Virus record (IMG/VR): IMGVR_UViG_3300005403_000018
Coordinates: 1 to 37,336 of that record
Source of the DNA: a virus
Taxonomy: Duplodnaviria > Caudoviricetes
Reading direction: 5' to 3' (one strand)
DNA length: 37,336 nucleotides
The notes beneath the pieces are model-generated. The model was not told the origin of the DNA. It was given only the letters and a program-made list of their open reading frames with translations, and searched no databases. Position 1 is the first letter of the stretch; every line of letters starts with the position of its first letter. The position numbers and the translations under genes were made by a program. This document shows positions 51-27,124 of this stretch, in pieces.

Positions 51-266
51 TTAGAAGCCTTCTGCTTTTTCCGCCTTGATACTTGATTGTAATACCGACT
101 TGACCTGTTTCAATACTTCCATGTCTGCCTTTAGTTCGGCATACCGTCCGGCAATGTGCGCAAACTCAATCTGCTTGTCTAACATCTCTTGACCAACGCG
201 CTCTAGTAGTAACACCTTCCCGCCGTAATCAAGAGATAATATGTCTGTCTTTGATAGTTCACTCAT
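51..266 (-). CDS. Hypothetical small coiled-coil protein upstream of TerS
   Basis: 71-aa ORF whose TAA overlaps the next ATG (TAATG). Confidence 0.7.
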   Translation of the reverse strand: MSELSKTDILSLDYGGKVLLLERVGQEMLDKQIEFAHIAGRYAELKADMEVLKQVKSVLQSSIKAEKAEGF

Positions 267-362
267 GCGTAAACTCTATACCTTCCGAGTAACCAGTCAA
301 AAAATATAATCCACTTTTTCCAGATTGTCATAAGTCCTCACTCAATTTATTATAGCATAAAA

Positions 363-394
363 GCAAACGACCCGGTATTATCCAGGTCGCTTAC
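363..394 (-). terminator. Intrinsic terminator-like hairpin after cassette 1
   Basis: GCGACCTGGATAATACCGGGTCGT stem-loop followed by TTGCTTTT on the minus strand. Confidence 0.6.
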
Positions 395-1890: not shown

Positions 1891-2091
1891 CTAACATTTT
1901 ACTACATGTTTTTTTCTCTGCATTTTCCTCTCTTTCAGTATCATTTCAAGTAAGTTTTCCCATCCTTCGTCTCGATTATGTCCCTTGACTTCACCGGCGC
2001 ATATTACCTCTTTGTTGACCGAGACAACGTAGGTATAGTTTGAACTTTCGTTGGATCCACCCTCATTGTGGATTGTGATTATCAGCATCAT
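1891..2091 (-). CDS. Hypothetical protein
   Basis: 66-aa ORF coupled to the rtcB stop. Confidence 0.7.
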   Translation of the reverse strand: MMLIITIHNEGGSNESSNYTYVVSVNKEVICAGEVKGHNRDEGWENLLEMILKERKMQRKKHVVKC

Positions 2092-3236
2092 TATCCCTTG
2101 ATTGATGCAAGTGGTTTTAATTCAACAAGTATTTCTACAAGGTCTTTTTGGTTTTCCATGACAATGTCAATATCCTTGTATGCGCCTGGAGATTCGTCAA
2201 GGTCTTTTGCAGTTCTTAGTCCATGAATTACGCCTTCCATTTTTCGTTGTTCATCTTCAAGATTTAGAGACCTTTCTGCTTCCTTGCGCCCCATTCTACG
2301 CCCCGCCCCATGAGAGCATGAAGTAAAACTGTCTGGATTACCTAAACCCCTGACAATATAACTTTTAGTCCCCATTGAACCAGGAATAATTCCGGTAGTA
2401 TTGGCCGTTGCTAAAGTAGCGCCCTTGCGATGAACAATTACATCTTTTCCAAAGTGATGTTCAAATTTTGCGTAGTTATGATTTATGTTTATTGATTCTA
2501 CAATTTCAGCATTCATAAATCTATAAAAAACAGCAAAGATATTATCCATCATTAATTGACGGTTGGCTTTTGCAAACTCCAAACAGTAATTCATGGCTTC
2601 AAAATATTCCTTACCTTCCGGCGTTTCAATTGGTAAAAACGCCAGGTCTTTGTCTGGAATATCCGATTGCCAACGCTCACATAGTGCCTGTGCTTTTGCG
2701 TGGAAAACCTTTGCGGTCTTTAAACCAAAGTTACGGCTACCAGAATGGAGCATAATCCAGATATGTCCATCATTCCCTTTTTGGATTTCAATGAAGTGAT
2801 TACCACCGCCCAATGTTCCTAATTGCTTTTTAGATGAATTTAGTTCTTGCTGAATAATTGGAATATCAGGCGCGTTATCAAATCCACCCCACGCTTGATT
2901 TTCTTGTTGGCGATCGAACCCTAAGGGCACTACTTCTCGAATTTTACCCATGAGTAGTTTTAGTGAATCTGTATCGATTTCAGTTAGTGATGTTTTTACA
3001 GCACTCATACCACAGCCAATATCCACACCAACGGCATTTGGTACAATCACGCCCTTGGTTGCCATAACCCCACCAATAGGCATTCCGTATCCCTGGTGAG
3101 AATCCGGCATAATCGCAATGTGCTTGAACGCAAACGGAAGTTTAGCCAGGTTCAACGCCTGTTGTAATGCGCCGGCCTCAATATCATCTAACCATAATTT
3201 TATTGGAATTCTCTCACTTGTAATTACGCTCTTCAT
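2091..3236 (-). CDS. rtcB: RtcB-family RNA 2',3'-cyclic-phosphate/5'-OH ligase
   Basis: Motifs MPDSHQGYGMPIGG, AVGVDIGCG, LGTLGGGNHFIE, HSGSR, NHNYA, HRKGAT, IPGSMG, SCSHGAGR, DESPGAYKDI. Confidence 0.97.
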   Translation of the reverse strand: MKSVITSERIPIKLWLDDIEAGALQQALNLAKLPFAFKHIAIMPDSHQGYGMPIGGVMATKGVIVPNAVGVDIGCGMSAVKTSLTEIDTDSLKLLMGKIREVVPLGFDRQQENQAWGGFDNAPDIPIIQQELNSSKKQLGTLGGGNHFIEIQKGNDGHIWIMLHSGSRNFGLKTAKVFHAKAQALCERWQSDIPDKDLAFLPIETPEGKEYFEAMNYCLEFAKANRQLMMDNIFAVFYRFMNAEIVESININHNYAKFEHHFGKDVIVHRKGATLATANTTGIIPGSMGTKSYIVRGLGNPDSFTSCSHGAGRRMGRKEAERSLNLEDEQRKMEGVIHGLRTAKDLDESPGAYKDIDIVMENQKDLVEILVELKPLASIKG

Positions 3237-5069: not shown

Positions 5070-5254
5070 TACCCTACTTTCTTCTCTATCCTGACCTGAT
5101 TGCCTTTTACCCAGATTATCTCAGGCCGATAACCGAACCGTTTCACAAATTGATCTATCGCGTCTTGTACCGTCTCACCTTTTGTAAGTGAGTATCCTTC
5201 ACATTCTACGGTTGACATTTTAGCCCATGTATCTATTTCGATGATTTCAGTCAC
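5069..5254 (-). CDS. Hypothetical protein
   Basis: 61-aa coupled ORF. Confidence 0.6.
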   Translation of the reverse strand: MTEIIEIDTWAKMSTVECEGYSLTKGETVQDAIDQFVKRFGYRPEIIWVKGNQVRIEKKVG

Positions 5255-5729
5255 AAAACACCTCTATTGTATTTAGCTTTGCAAACTCGCCATATAAATC
5301 TATTGCATTTTTATTGTATGCCAAGGCCGCCTCCTCTATTGTTTTAAAACATCCGAGGTGAATATGTTTTCTGTTTTTGCAAATTTTTGCCATGTATGGA
5401 TTGCTTGTTCCTGGAGTATAATAAACGCCCTTATATCCCGTCGTGTTATTTTTACCCAATAAAGAGTTCGCTTGATTCTGAGACGCGCTACAAATCCTTA
5501 AATTTTCTTTTCTGTTGTCAAGAGTATCGTGATTTATATGGTCAACATATTCACCTTCCATAGCGCCCAAAATAACTCGGTGCATTTTTATGTGTTTAAA
5601 TGTACCGTCAACGCGCTTATTTCCATCGGCATATCCATAATTAAAATTCCACTTGCAAAAGTTTATTTTTTCAAAATCTTCATCGTCAATCTTTGAAAAT
5701 TTTCCTTGAGTTAATGGGATTAATATCAT
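5247..5729 (-). CDS. HNH-AP2 homing endonuclease
   Basis: MHRVIL...VDHINHDTLDNRKENLR (HNH) and GYKGV...HLGCFKTIEEAALAYN (AP2). Start at MILIPLTQG with SD GGAG. Confidence 0.92.
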   Translation of the reverse strand: MILIPLTQGKFSKIDDEDFEKINFCKWNFNYGYADGNKRVDGTFKHIKMHRVILGAMEGEYVDHINHDTLDNRKENLRICSASQNQANSLLGKNNTTGYKGVYYTPGTSNPYMAKICKNRKHIHLGCFKTIEEAALAYNKNAIDLYGEFAKLNTIEVFCD

Positions 5730-5739
5730 GTTACTCCAA

Positions 5740-5852
5740 AATATAAACAGCAGCCAATTACCAGGATAGTGTTTTCTCAGGAACACGGAGGTAAAAAGCT
5801 GCTGCTTATACATTATCTTATTCCATGTTCCTGAGTAACTCTATTGTACCAC
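5740..5852 (-). promoter_or_regulatory. Extended -10 promoter and structured leader of the HNH-AP2 gene
   Basis: TGGTACAAT; complementary blocks 5822..5835/5776..5789 and 5790..5807/5745..5762. Confidence 0.65.
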
Positions 5853-22637: not shown

Positions 22638-24215
22638 TTACCTCCCTGTTTTTACTAAGTAGTCTGTTAGAACACGTGCATTCTCGTAAGGATCGTATGC
22701 CATTTGTCTTACTGCTTTGATTAGTTTGTCATCCCCACCCGGTCTTTGCACCGTGATTTTCTCACCCGCGCTCGCGGTTGCAACTCCACCCATGTTGAAC
22801 CCCTCGTATCCAGCCCAACCAGGAACGGTAAACGAACCTCCGGTAGCCATTTTCTCTTGAACACCCGTTCCTTGCGCACCACCGATAACATTACCACTAC
22901 CAGTTGTTACTGGGCCTGAAGATTGCCCGCCATTGGATTGGCCTGCGTATACCGTGGTGATTGTTATGTTTTTCCATGAGGGAATTCCATTTATAGCGTT
23001 TTTCAACCTGCTCGCTTGGTCTATCGCCCTTTGCATTTCGTCAACGGCTTTTTGAGAATAAATACCCCATTCAACGCCCTTTGCAAGCAGGAATTCAACT
23101 TCTTGTTGTGTCAACCCATCAGCCGCTAATAGTTGTTCGGTGTAACCTAAAATTATCTTGCGGGTAGCAAGTTCGTGAGCGGCTTCAACTTCTTTGATAG
23201 CCGCTATCCTTTCGTCGTCCGTTTTGTATTCGGTTTCGGCTATGTTCTTTAGTGATGTTTCGTAATTTTCATTAGCACTTTGCATCCCGTCTGTAATAGC
23301 CAACATATCCTTGCTTGTTTGGTTCATTATTGCTAATTGTTCTTCAGCCGATGCAGTAGAACTACCAACATCTTCCATAATACTTCTATGTTCAATCGCA
23401 ATTCTGTTATACTCTTCCATGACCTTAACGGCGTATTCTTCTTTTGTTGTATAGCCTCCCACCATAATATCTAAACCTTGTATTGCTCCCTCTAGCATCC
23501 AAAATGCGGCGGTAATTAGTTTTGTTATTGTCTCTGATTCGTCAATAACTTCAAGAAAATCAGCCCAACGAACATTTAACTTTGTTAACGCCGGCATAGT
23601 ACCCTGTGCAACAGAATAATTTAATGCGTCCTGTGCATCTTTTACGGCATCTATCGACCGCTTGTATTCAAACGTTGATTTTACTATTGCATCCGTGACA
23701 ACTAAACTGTCGGCAATCGCTTCCATGTTCTTAGTGATACCAGCTGAACCCTGTTCTAACAGTTTACCCATTGCCAACCCAGAACGCCCGAAGTTGTCAT
23801 TCAATAATTTAGCGCGTTCTTGTGGAGTTGCTAAGGCGTTATATTCGTCTGCCAGCGCCTTGATACCGGCAACCGACATATCAAGACCTTTTTTAGCACC
23901 GATTGACATTGCATTATTTAACGCTTCTTGGCTTAGGAAAGCATCATCTGCAACCTGTACAAGCCGTGACATTTGGTCAACTTGATCGCCAGTAAACCTT
24001 GCCATGTCCACGATAGACGTGACGTATTTGTCATTATTCTCAATCGCTTGTTTTGTGTACTGGATAACCTCTTGCATCGCCTTACCCGCTAAAGCGATAC
24101 CACCGGCTGCCCCTAAAGAGAATCCGGTCAAGGACTTAAAGGACGCGTTCAACTTGTTCATTGAACCGCTTGCGTTATCAGTTGCCTTTAGGATAATTTC
24201 TACTGTGTTAGCCAT
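22638..24215 (-). CDS. Tape measure protein
   Basis: MANTVEIILKATDNAS start, Ala-rich helical, FGRSG motif, follows the chaperone pair. Confidence 0.85.
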   Translation of the reverse strand: MANTVEIILKATDNASGSMNKLNASFKSLTGFSLGAAGGIALAGKAMQEVIQYTKQAIENNDKYVTSIVDMARFTGDQVDQMSRLVQVADDAFLSQEALNNAMSIGAKKGLDMSVAGIKALADEYNALATPQERAKLLNDNFGRSGLAMGKLLEQGSAGITKNMEAIADSLVVTDAIVKSTFEYKRSIDAVKDAQDALNYSVAQGTMPALTKLNVRWADFLEVIDESETITKLITAAFWMLEGAIQGLDIMVGGYTTKEEYAVKVMEEYNRIAIEHRSIMEDVGSSTASAEEQLAIMNQTSKDMLAITDGMQSANENYETSLKNIAETEYKTDDERIAAIKEVEAAHELATRKIILGYTEQLLAADGLTQQEVEFLLAKGVEWGIYSQKAVDEMQRAIDQASRLKNAINGIPSWKNITITTVYAGQSNGGQSSGPVTTGSGNVIGGAQGTGVQEKMATGGSFTVPGWAGYEGFNMGGVATASAGEKITVQRPGGDDKLIKAVRQMAYDPYENARVLTDYLVKTGR

Positions 24216-24479
24216 TATTCACCAAGTTTTCAGCGAACTCTAATAGTTGTAAGGCGTATTGATTTTCAGAAGCGAAAGCCGCCGCATTAGTGGCGTTTTT
24301 TCTGGCGTTATACATTCTGATAACCTTTTCTGACCATTCAATTCTGTTTACCTCATAGGCATATAACTGCCTACCTAATACCGCTTGTACACCGAACCTG
24401 TCCAACCTTGACGCGAGTTCTATTTCTTTTGGTATATTACCTTCGCCGCTCACCCATTTAAAGGCGTCGGCGATTACCC
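24208..24479 (-). CDS. Tail assembly chaperone, -1 frameshift extension (gpT-like part)
   Basis: Open in the -1 frame from the slippery site through to the stop at 24208. Confidence 0.75.
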
Positions 24480-24866
24480 GTTTGGGACTTCGTCTGCCTC
24501 TTTGTATAATTTAGTAATCTCGGTCATCAGCCAGTTCATCAATTCAAGCCTTGATTGTCTCGGAGTAGCCGGAAAGTTTTCGGGATCGAAGTCTTTTAAA
24601 TTCCATTCCAAAACACATTCCTTTATTCCTGGCAAAACCTCGTTAGCGTATTTCACGCTATTTGAGATATTCAGGTATTCAAGATGTTCTGGTAATAACT
24701 TAGTCGTATCAATACTTCCATCTTCTTTTAGTTCAAATTCAACCTCTGGAAGTAAGGCGCGTGCCTTTTCAAGAGCATCTTCCCACGCCATAGCCTGCGG
24801 AATAGTCAAATATTCAGGTAGTGTGATCGTACCTGGCCATCGTTTTACGGGTGATTCTATTTTCAT
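24474..24866 (-). CDS. Tail assembly chaperone (gpG-like)
   Basis: Between tail tube and tape measure; ends GTC CCA AAC GGG TAA. Confidence 0.8.
   Translation of the reverse strand: MKIESPVKRWPGTITLPEYLTIPQAMAWEDALEKARALLPEVEFELKEDGSIDTTKLLPEHLEYLNISNSVKYANEVLPGIKECVLEWNLKDFDPENFPATPRQSRLELMNWLMTEITKLYKEADEVPNG
24480..24486 (-). other. Programmed -1 frameshift slippery heptamer C-CCA-AAC
   Basis: XXXYYYZ in the correct phase; downstream TCGCCG...CGGCGA stem-loop. Confidence 0.75.
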
Positions 24867-24937: not shown

Positions 24938-25607
24938 CTATGCATGGTTCGTAGTAGCCCATCCTGGTGCAGTTGGGCCAAAGACGTTGAATGTCGCGGT
25001 AATCTCTGTGTCAGTGGCGGTCATATCTTTTAGAACATAACCGCTCGTGGCTGAAGATGAAATACCGAAACAGGGTTCGCCCGTCACTTGTGGGGATTGT
25101 CGAATACCTACCCTAATATCAAGAGATAATGGGGTATTCCTATTCAACGCAATCAGGTGAGCGAATACAACCGTATCCCATTGGAAGGTAATCGTTAGCG
25201 GCGCTTCCGGCCTCCCAATTACTACATTCATTGCGCCGTCGTTATATGCGGTTACGTCTTGTTCTGCATACGTCAAACCGAAAGTATTCACGCTTTTTGT
25301 ATAAGCCGTGAGATCGGTCAACGTGCCTGACGAATTGTCAAGCCAGAACTCTACATGTTTGGCGTTTGTTCTCGATTTTGTTATCCCTTTCGGGAGCGGG
25401 TCATTTCTGCCGCGCTCTGCAAGTTGTTATTCCTTGCAGTCCAGACTATGCCTTTATCCTTTCGGATATTCCGTTTCTAGTCGTTGCACCTTCCCTTTGT
25501 GGGCTTGGCTCACTCTCTGCATTTCAGCCTTTAAGTGAATTTACGGAATGTTTCAATCACAATTTCTTGTGAAGGGGGCTATTTTGTTAACCCGTTTGTG
25601 CTGCCAT
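24938..25607 (-). CDS. Probable major tail (tube) protein, intron-split: exon 1 25607..25590, exon 2 25372..24938 (150 aa spliced)
   Basis: SD AAGGAG + ATG; splicing gives in-frame MAAQTG|RTNAKHVEFWLDNSSGTLTDLTAY; directly upstream of the chaperone. Confidence 0.8.
25373..25589 (-). ncRNA. Group I self-splicing intron, 217 nt, no internal ORF
   Basis: P1 GGGU|UA..UAGCCC with U.G at the splice site, P2 UCACAA-GAAA-UUGUGA, P3 AUUCCGU/ACGGAAU, P4 UCACU/AGUGA, P7 GACUA/UAGUC, P8 AUCC-GAAA-GGAU, P9 stems, terminal G. Confidence 0.92.
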
Positions 25608-25622
25608 AATTTACTCCTTTTA

Positions 25623-25740
25623 TGGTATAATTTGATTACTTAGGCAAAGCAGTTGGTCAGATTTTTTATTTCATGCGTCTCGTTTAGACTGTATTGCCTA
25701 AGTAACAATACTGACCCACTAAACGGGGCGCTCCTTTTTG
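25623..25740 (+). promoter_or_regulatory. Extended -10 promoter and structured leader of the HNH gene
   Basis: TGGTATAAT; TTACTTAGGCAA/TTGCCTAAGTAA, GGTCAG/CTGACC, GCGTCTCGTTTAG/CTAAACGGGGCGC. Confidence 0.7.
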
Positions 25741-25747
25741 GATAGTT

Positions 25748-26407
25748 ATGAAAAATCTTTTTCTTATTGTCTGTGAGCATTGCAAAAAGCCTTTTTATGT
25801 ACATAAATATAGAAGAAATTCTGCGAGATTTTGTTCCTATTCTTGTAGAAGTAAAACCACTATGGGAAAAGGCGAAACCGCTGTTTTTTGGAAAGGCGGA
25901 AAAAAAACTTTTATTTGTCAAAACTGTGGAAACAATTTTCTTGGTTCTACTGGAAACAAAAATAAGTTTTGTTCTAAAGATTGTTTTGATAAATGTAGAA
26001 TGAGGCGCGTTGAAACAAAATGCGCAAATTGCGGTAAAATTACATTCAAAAAACTTTCCAAATTCAACGAATCTATCAATCATTTTTGTTCTCAAAAATG
26101 CAGTAAAGATTATCTTGTTGGAGAAAAATCCCATCTTTGGACTGGCGGCAATAAAGATTATCCGCAAACATTTAATCGCAAGTTTAAAAAGATGATTAGA
26201 GATCGAGACAACTTTACGTGTGCTATTTGTAAAGAATATGGAAACGAAGTTCACCACATTAATTATGTGAAGAACGATACTATTCCAGAAAATTGCATTA
26301 CTCTTTGTAAAAGTTGTCATTGTAAGACCAATCATCACCGTGAATATTGGAAATCCTTATTATGTTCCTCTAATAAAAGCACAAGCAAAAGTTGCGGTAT
26401 TGGCTGA
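25748..26407 (+). CDS. Free-standing HNH endonuclease with repeated Zn-finger (CxxC..FCSxxC) domains; the only plus-strand gene
   Basis: Three CxxC...FCS..C repeats; RDNFTCAIC..EVHHI...N.ITLC..CH. Confidence 0.9.
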   Translation: MKNLFLIVCEHCKKPFYVHKYRRNSARFCSYSCRSKTTMGKGETAVFWKGGKKTFICQNCGNNFLGSTGNKNKFCSKDCFDKCRMRRVETKCANCGKITFKKLSKFNESINHFCSQKCSKDYLVGEKSHLWTGGNKDYPQTFNRKFKKMIRDRDNFTCAICKEYGNEVHHINYVKNDTIPENCITLCKSCHCKTNHHREYWKSLLCSSNKSTSKSCGIG

Positions 26408-27124
26408 GCCTAAAGCCAACTGCCATCTTAAATACTGTCTTACGGTTGCTGTCTTAGCGAGTGCAACCATTCCAGAAGCCGGTGTAACACTTGCGTTTAT
26501 CAATCCACTTGTAGCCCCTGATAACGCTGAAAAAGCGCCGTCGTTGGCGTTAGTAGCTGAATCATCAACAGATAACGTACAAGTACCGTCTGACGAGAAT
26601 AACTGCCAGGCGAAGATCCCGCCTTTAGCACTTGCCGCCCCGTTATTGATTGTTCCAACGGCTGTATTAGCCGCCGTCCTGGCTGCCTTTGCATGAAGTA
26701 ATAGACCAAATGGGTTCTCATAACCCTTGACTTCTGAATAAGAAGCGGCAGGAAAGTTTACGTTTACACCAACAATACCTTGGCCGTCCGAAGTGTAAGA
26801 CGCTTGCTGCATAGTCCACGCAAACACCGGCATACCCACTGTTGGTTCTGCGATTGTTCCAAAAGCAACCATGACATTAGTTACGATGTTCCCGGCACTC
26901 ATTAACTCATGTAATCCAATAGCGGCAGAAGGTGACAAGAATGCGTTTAGCGGGCCACACTGGATAGAAGCCATTCCGAGAATGGTATTCATAACTTCGT
27001 CTGAATAGGCAGCGGCGGGAGTATCTTCCATCGTTACACCAACCGAACCAATATCCCTTGCAGTACCTGAAATATCGTATGCGTTTGCGTAGACCCTTGT
27101 ATATTTAGGATTTAATCTTGTCAT
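26360..27124 (-). CDS. Tail structural protein (tube-like N-terminus)
   Basis: 254 aa, Ala/Gly/Thr-rich, after the tail terminator-like gene. Confidence 0.65.
   Translation of the reverse strand: MTRLNPKYTRVYANAYDISGTARDIGSVGVTMEDTPAAAYSDEVMNTILGMASIQCGPLNAFLSPSAAIGLHELMSAGNIVTNVMVAFGTIAEPTVGMPVFAWTMQQASYTSDGQGIVGVNVNFPAASYSEVKGYENPFGLLLHAKAARTAANTAVGTINNGAASAKGGIFAWQLFSSDGTCTLSVDDSATNANDGAFSALSGATSGLINASVTPASGMVALAKTATVRQYLRWQLALGSANTATFACAFIRGT

Follow-up and report, generated by a model that had tools for sequence, protein, structure and literature searches.

A compact group I intron beside an antisense HNH endonuclease cassette at the start of a phage tail-tube-fold gene

The 37,336-base virus record analysed here, referred to in its whole length as the window, carries terminase, portal, head, head-tail adaptor, tape measure and endolysin genes on its minus strand, together with a gene for a tail-tube-fold protein that is interrupted after its sixth codon by a group I intron of 217 bases, which very probably works, that is, splices itself out. 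The structure of the intron, its splice sites, the restored frame, the lack of a full-length product from unspliced message, the patchy distribution and a DNA block shared with a second locus are established at the level of sequence and comparison. The best overall explanation, and in our view a likely one, is that this self-splicing intron has spread with an adjoining gene for an HNH endonuclease, by collaborative homing or by hitch-hiking. The preliminary description of the locus omitted this HNH cassette; the HNH gene and its covarying leader are the new part here. The interrupted gene is made up as follows.

25614..25619, minus strand: Shine-Dalgarno sequence AAGGAG of the tube gene, 6 nt ahead of its ATG, read from the sequence
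25590..25607, minus strand: exon 1, six codons ending in GGT (Gly), the final four bases of which form P1 together with the internal guide sequence
25373..25589, minus strand: group I intron, 217 nt, without an ORF (Rfam RF00028 and a helix table over seven introns)
25443..25484, minus strand: P7 guanosine site (5' strand 25484-25478 with a bulged C, 3' strand 25448-25443)
24938..25372, minus strand: exon 2, 144 codons and a stop, of the 150-aa tail-tube-fold protein (AlphaFold2 model, structure comparison, PHROG match of a homologue)

The intron begins with an in-frame TAA at 25589, directly after exon 1, and ends with a G at 25373, both as noted before, and its excision yields a single 150-aa frame from the two exons. 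P1, P2 (GAAA loop), P3, P4, P5 (two pairs), P6/P6a, P7, P8, P9, P9.1, P9.2, P9.0 and the terminal G could all be drawn, and the helix table thus agrees with the earlier drawing of P1 to P9 with a U.G pair at the 5' splice site; P1 consists of this pair plus three G-C pairs, and no P7.1/P7.2, P5abc or clear P10 appears in the 217-nt intron. The covariance-model comparison that had been proposed as a check returned RF00028 over 25417-25599 (minus strand) at 52.5 bits (gathering cut-off 50, E = 1.1e-10), the sole gathering-level Rfam match in the whole window, which together with helices kept across seven introns bears out the group I assignment. The intron region folded with z = -5.3, and none of 200 shuffles was equally stable. 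One of five P10 positions pairs, in keeping with the remark that no P10 was obvious; P10 is described in the available part of one source as an auxiliary helix that aids the choice of the 3' site (PMC6155759). When U/G boundary pairs were enumerated, 15 kept a frame open, and the 217-nt pair is preferred because of P9.0 and because homologues have no extra residues between Gly6 and Arg7. Since there is no in-frame start from the last intron stop to TTG 25321, the unspliced message cannot yield the full-length protein. The four sequencing runs listed for the region include none of RNA, and their contigs, being DNA in which splicing would leave no trace, showed no joints.

By class, the helices P7.1/P7.2 are assigned to subgroup IA; here P7 joins P3 via three bases and neither helix is present, which argues against that subgroup. 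Compared by layout, the core agrees with subgroup IC3 and the P9 region differs. P7.1/P7.2 are named among group I intron features in the accessible part of a published account (PMC3984707). An IStron reading was also considered and is ruled out, because all 217 nt are accounted for by helices; no insertion-sequence genes lie in the 3' part. The direct repeat reported at the two intron ends, TAACAAAAT, is indeed present at 25589 and 25383 (a 9-nt match was reached in 78 of 20,000 shuffles, a post-hoc test), but it is not conserved: the AACA motif close to the 3' end is family-wide, and the 5' copy is absent from six of six related introns. As this copy occurs in the window only, the repeat was rejected as a functional feature of the family.

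Homologues support the splice sites. A search with the exon 2 protein gave 235 matches among 254 candidates, and the best 120, which include the window's own product, were used. Among the 119 homologues so obtained, 115 have an N-terminus of the form M-x(2-5)-G-R/K-T/S/I/M, 20 share all of their first eight residues with the restored protein, so that the predicted intron-less proteins beginning MAAQTGRT do exist, and none starts at the position of TTG 25321, which had been named as an observation that would speak against the intron. TTG 25321, which has no Shine-Dalgarno-like sequence ahead of it comparable to the AAGGAG of the tube ATG, was rejected as the true start. Gly6, Arg7 and Thr8 are nearly invariant in the tube family, and exon 2, which is intact, shares 88% identity with the closest homologue among these best 120 of 235. 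The protein collection stores the window product in a 127-aa TTG form (P0001), as expected from the earlier statement that standard annotation truncates the gene. Two further proteins, P0007 and P0038, begin unusually, with K-S ahead of R-T, like the tail of the window intron read in frame; we infer from these extensions, which resemble translated intron tails, that they are further alleles with an intron at the same site. The intron signature is thus found in 3 of the 120 proteins (best 120 of 235): the window's own and these two.

The identification of the gene as a tail tube gene, already proposed, is supported by its predicted fold and by a homologue. The AlphaFold2 model of exon 2 (pLDDT 86.6) had tail tube proteins as its best matches (8gtb_B, VIA Z 10.9, rmsd 3.3, 121 aligned), the top Foldseek rows were tube-fold proteins (none at E ≤ 0.001, best 1.2e-3), and an intact homologue of the exon 2 product matched phrog_10528, major tail protein, with E = 1.2e-6. 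The 127-aa ORF of the window had no match in Pfam or PHROG, and the tube family had none among 50,697 phage records. Two neighbouring features bear on the role of the gene.

26360..27124, minus strand: 254-aa paralogue with a predicted tube-fold N-terminal domain and a jelly-roll domain (structure comparison)
22638..24866, minus strand: 130-aa and 81-aa ORFs, in what we infer to be the tail-chaperone position, and a tape-measure gene (phrog_8125, E 3.4e-4)

The paralogue likewise matched 8gtb_B (Z 8.2, rmsd 3.0, 122 aligned), and the tube profile also matched the counterpart of the 254-aa gene in genome G001 (E 3.2e-8). A scan of viral contigs with a single-protein query gave no match; the alignment-based scan gave 181 loci, of which the best 80 were examined with 11 genome loci, 91 in all. 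The two genes are adjacent and occur together in 68 of these 91 related loci, which suggests distinct roles. As to which of them supplies the main tube subunit, the tube gene is favoured by its position directly before the chaperone-like ORFs and the tape measure, and the paralogue has the same fold. The earlier claim that tail assembly depends on splicing is therefore kept at likely, as a tube-fold domain is also predicted for the product of the adjacent 254-aa gene.

Introns of this kind are common, as a scan of viral contigs for the core motif found 123 stretches in 4 of 64 collection parts, from which about 2,600 are estimated overall; the short P7-P3-P8 region was scored in 23 of 118 distinct motif matches. 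Six relatives of 221-227 nt share the architecture of the window intron (L048, L076, L095 and L123, with L155 and L271 from other scans). That of L155 lies in the tube gene and that of L048 in a major head gene by PHROG; L095 and L123 match L048 by peptide, and we read the host genes of L076 and L271, which had no PHROG match, as capsid genes. Over the seven introns P1, P3, P4, P6 and P7 are kept with covariation, P7 having an A-U pair plus a bulged C in four and a G-C pair plus a bulged A in three. All seven have the U.G pair of P1 at the 5' splice site as well as the terminal G, and P9.0, made by four different combinations of pairs, is kept in 6/7 and so fixes the 3' splice site. P10 is as weak as in the window in L155, L048 and L095, has two of five positions plus a distal pair in L076, and is strong (four to five pairs) in L271 and L123. 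The intron of L155, at the same site as that of the window, measures 221 nt, is 87% identical over 181 nt, scores 56.6 bits with RF00028 and has the same short P5 and weak P10; in another same-site intron, from run X2, two-sided changes were read by hand in P2 (25568/25561) and P4 (25535/25513) among the variants listed. A metagenome scan with the intron core found four stretches (the window's own contig, two with the capsid-gene intron sequence of L219, and L271) and no new tube-site intron.

Several relatives show features of their own. A P5 of two pairs (window, L155, L271, L076) goes with a long A-rich L9 loop and one of four to five pairs (L048, L095, L123) with a GNRA L9 loop, the two regions concerned lying at intron nt 58-74 and 151-173 (window 25532-25516 and 25439-25417); a switch of tertiary contact may possibly underlie this pattern. 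L271 (1-428, minus strand) holds two related introns in tandem in a capsid-like gene, each after a GGT codon with a short exon between them, the second cut by the contig end. In a major head gene of L219/L273 (541-1438) lies a close ribozyme relative whose P9 region contains an antisense LAGLIDADG gene; judged by eye, a good sigma-70-type promoter and a strong P10 are present.

The size of the window intron had been called minimal, which overstates it. Nine of nine tRNA-type phage introns measured among the 23 matches are 189-211 nt long, with ends set by hand since ARAGORN made no call of the split tRNAs, so that 217 nt is compact but no record; Rfam backs the group I identity in 4/4 of those checked, one of them above the cut-off. 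The smallest, in L124 (about 214-394, plus strand), has about 189 nt between hand-set ends and 47.3 bits with Rfam, below the 205 nt quoted for Azoarcus, and those of L094, L040, L114 and L072 have 197-199 nt. A literature search for a statement on the smallest group I intron, with most subscription papers outside its reach, found nothing relevant.

Immediately upstream of exon 1 lies a cassette that points away from the tube gene.

25623..25631, plus strand: extended -10 promoter-like site TG-n-TATAAT, found by eye, in four of four cassettes, one with a mismatch
25748..26407, plus strand: free-standing HNH endonuclease of 219 aa, with Cys-rich repeats at its N-terminus, encoded against the direction of the late operon (phrog_1271, E 2.1e-20)

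A two-hexamer promoter scan gave nothing at 25623..25631. The HNH gene has 32% G+C, versus 46-47% for its neighbours, and its His-His/Asn/His motif and cysteines are invariant in three of three aligned homologues. The ORF-less intron therefore adjoins a free-standing endonuclease gene with an intact catalytic motif, which is the arrangement expected of collaborative homing. Most clusters have 24-64 bases between the tube gene and the 254-aa gene; in the window, L155 and L130/L131 an HNH gene on the other strand occupies this interval, with the extended -10 site and a conserved leader ahead of it. The HNH proteins of the window and L155 are about 47-51% identical, more diverged than their introns. 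L130/L131 have the cassette and no intron, and in L159/L160 this leader precedes another type of HNH gene, located downstream of the tube gene, which indicates that the cassette moves and survives alone. Compared with the empty alleles L125/L126, it sits cleanly between the upstream stop codon and the Shine-Dalgarno sequence. Its ends, at about 26355 and 25620, have similar sequences of about 10 bases, possibly microhomology or a target duplication. Elsewhere the window holds a second free-standing HNH/AP2 endonuclease gene without this leader (5247-5813, minus strand) and a phage-encoded RtcB RNA ligase (2091-3236, minus strand); group I splicing needs no ligase, and RtcB is thus not taken to be connected with the intron.

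The leader of the HNH gene has a structure of its own, which was compared in four copies.

25636..25747, plus strand: conserved structured leader of the HNH gene, no credible Rfam match
25636-47 with 25694-705, plus strand: helix a
25656-60 with 25711-15, plus strand: helix b
25675-87 with 25719-31, plus strand: helix c
25692-96 with 25706-10, plus strand: hairpin d, which excludes a
Promoter and leader copies: window 25623-25747 (plus), L155 2427-2562 (minus), L130 3338-3472 (minus), L159 4354-4489 (minus)

Helices a, b and c pair in 118 of 119 cells over the four distinct copies, with two-sided changes in 6 of 30 pairs, and slid controls reached at most 43% pairing; the structure was derived from the same four sequences that were scored, and n = 4 gives no formal significance. 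Helices b and d never vary in the four copies and are thus without covariation support. Wobbles on the HNH strand were six G.U and no A.C in the positions counted (P = 0.03), which points to the leader being RNA of that strand. A small hairpin covers the ribosome-binding site of the HNH gene, and single-sequence folds choose either helix a or hairpin d, the two being mutually exclusive. Promoter and leader precede two unrelated HNH types, and all copies found lie within tail operons of phages of this group. Three leader patterns hit 3, 13 and 12 stretches in viral contigs, of which only five contigs, of L130/131, L155 and L159/160, are real by profile score; loose ends from run X3 suggest a fifth copy. 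Related HNH genes were compared at 37 loci; there the leader is confined to L155 and L130/131, so that it is not general to this HNH family. Rfam, including HEARO and small ribozymes, gave chance-level matches only (E ≤ 10), and a literature search, from which most subscription papers were excluded, found no relevant description. An HDV-like, hammerhead or pistol ribozyme was rejected in view of the missing Rfam match and because the core motifs were not seen, and a guide RNA because there is no variable guide-like segment and two unrelated HNH types have the leader. By the precedent of T4 (PMC2988022), the leader would most likely serve to limit expression of a toxic nuclease. A bolder and rather doubtful proposal is that these ~125 nt form an undescribed RNA switch (5' helix a versus hairpin d within a b/c pseudoknot, a U-rich loop facing a purine-rich strand), a portable module controlling antisense expression of unrelated toxic HNH types in a late operon, which with nuclease and intron would form a three-part mobile unit aimed at the start of the tail-tube gene.

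Intron and cassette appear to be linked in their distribution. L155 is the only one of the 91 loci (best 80 of 181 viral plus 11 genome loci) with an intron, at the same site as that of the window. The 68 loci with both paralogues form 49 clusters, 50 with the window; none of the 23 excluded has an intron match. Both intron-bearing clusters of the 50 have the upstream cassette, as does 1 of the 48 intron-less clusters (Fisher P = 0.0024), a value that overstates the linkage, because the two intron loci may share one transfer. The window (25738-25368) and L155 are 79% identical over 387 columns comprising promoter, leader, exon 1 and intron, a block that stops about 5 nt into exon 2, whereas their tube proteins are 41% identical and neither the tube nor the 254-aa genes align as DNA. 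Exon 1 matches in 17 of 18 bases and the start of exon 2 in 12 of 30; since the six bases at the junction also occur in 3 of 67 intron-less loci, the exon 1 match may stem from the need for P1 pairing and not from co-conversion. These observations fit joint travel of intron and nuclease, seen at two loci only (2/2 versus 1/48 clusters), with the cassette also occurring alone. In a tree built from 63 hand-picked tube sequences (31 of the 119 homologues, 31 loci and the window), the four intron alleles require four changes, near relatives have no intron signature, and a single clade is rejected (p-AU 1.6e-6), L155 being a long branch. The tube profile matched 4 of 401 genomes of the class of G001, one strongly, and its other matches lie in bins of unrelated taxa. 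In L155 (2839-4134, plus strand) the tube frame continues into tape-measure-like sequence (a 431-aa ORF), the chaperone genes are missing and a capsid gene is reversed nearby, an arrangement that may be read as a deletion or a misassembly.

By established group I chemistry, free guanosine would attack at the U.G pair of P1, and exon 1 would then attack after the terminal G, placed by P9.0 and the P7 G-site without a strong P10. Ribosomes entering the intron would be released at the in-frame TAA; such a stop is a described feature, and release there a reported view in the accessible part of the source (PMC3984707). The HNH protein, made from its own antisense promoter with the structured leader in control, would nick or cut intron-less alleles at or near the Gly6-Arg7 junction, and repair would copy HNH gene, leader, exon 1 and intron jointly, the intron shielding the donor, as in collaborative homing. 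That the adjoining HNH drove the spread of the intron is, on comparative grounds, distinctly probable; that its cut site is the insertion site itself falls somewhat short of an even chance.

The alternative that survives best, although unlikely, is that the cassette is an independent intronless-homing element with a target elsewhere nearby, for example at the 3' end of the 254-aa gene, and that the intron is co-converted without giving protection. This would suit the intron-free cassette of L130/L131, the different HNH behind the same leader in L159/L160, the clean insertion relative to L125/L126 and the end of the shared block about 5 nt into exon 2; however, both intron loci with DNA context have the cassette, and the Gly6-Arg7-Thr8 codons at the junction are nearly invariant, as homing sites tend to be. 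It is improbable that the intron spreads without the adjoining HNH, through ordinary recombination, reverse splicing or another nuclease, with the adjacency incidental: related introns in other genes do lack the cassette, one having an internal LAGLIDADG gene (L219/L273), but the linkage to the cassette and the shared block weigh against it. Quite improbable is that splicing has been retained for regulation, so as to set the time or the conditions of tail assembly. The idea is suggested by the place of the intron, which sits right where a structural gene begins and opens with a stop codon, yet only 3 of the best 120 of 235 proteins have the signature and near relatives lack it, a pattern typical of a selfish element. 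Least probable of all is a dead 150-aa gene whose intron no longer splices while the paralogue of predicted tube fold builds the tube, for despite the absent P10, the two-pair P5 and the non-tetraloop L9, exon 2 is intact at 88% identity, no core pair is lost, P5 is just as short and P10 as weak in L155, and the two paralogues together in 68/91 loci suggest distinct roles.

The locus is a candidate case of collaborative homing within a structural gene that could be tested, since alleles with the intron, with the cassette only and with neither occur naturally. The window intron and its relatives form a set of natural ribozymes of compact size (217-227 nt), which either have or lack P10 and some of which have a two-pair P5, on which the contacts needed by a small group I intron could be tested, and the leader, if a real switch, would be a new means of controlling homing endonucleases. 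Gene callers truncate such genes, as the 127-aa fragment and the two homologues with apparently intron-derived N-termini illustrate.

Among phage introns, the tail-gene setting, compact size and weak P10 of the window intron are all ordinary. Azoarcus-type tRNA introns, of subgroup IC3 and 205 nt, likewise have a compact core, a short P7-P3-P8 junction and no P5abc; the window intron differs in its protein-coding host gene, its three P9 hairpins and a P5 reduced to two pairs. The rarity in late genes assumed at the outset is weakened, since group I introns in phage tail and capsid genes are already published in the accessible parts of three sources (PMC11878797; PMC3706429; PMC7886860). Introns occur there in capsid genes of crAss-like phages (PMC7886860) and in the tail gene orf142 of Staphylococcus phage Twort (PMC11878797; AF132670.1), which is annotated in MT151386.1 as 'tail tube protein', joined from four pieces, and is thus, like the window gene, a tail tube gene with group I introns. 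Cultured-phage DNA matched the window region in 35-37-nt core pieces only, one of them in Twort orf142 (89.5%, E 2e-3). In Twort, a large myovirus, the gene is interrupted by three introns, about 290 nt each on average from the record span, whereas the window has a single 217-nt intron without P7.1/P7.2, next to which lies the antisense HNH cassette. Among Cluster J mycobacteriophages, introns occur in the LittleE capsid gene and a BAKA/Optimus tail gene. The latter intron, short (265 bp) and free of a nuclease gene like that of the window, interrupts a siphovirus tail gene, and its splicing was demonstrated by RT-PCR; a sister intron in a capsid gene carries a bottom-strand endonuclease, and the window family is split alike into ORF-less tube introns and the L219/L273 head-gene intron with its antisense LAGLIDADG gene. 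The Cluster J gene is a minor tail gene, and the portion of the report that was available describes no adjoining free-standing nuclease or structured leader (PMC3706429).

F-CphI and the psbA intron of cyanophage S-PM2 are a described case of collaborative homing, where an Endo VII motif enzyme was shown to cleave and the intron to protect, in so far as the available parts of the reports extend; the window holds a Cys-rich HNH, upstream and on the opposite strand, a candidate pair from sequence (PMC6083498; PMC3984707). T4 segD, like the window HNH, is an endonuclease gene opposite to its flanking structural genes, and hairpin-controlled T4 endonuclease genes, like the window, have RNA structure over the ribosome-binding site. 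In the accessible part of that work segD lacks its own promoter and the controls are single hairpins, whereas the window has a promoter-like site and a multi-helix leader of ~110 nt common to two unrelated HNH types (PMC2988022).
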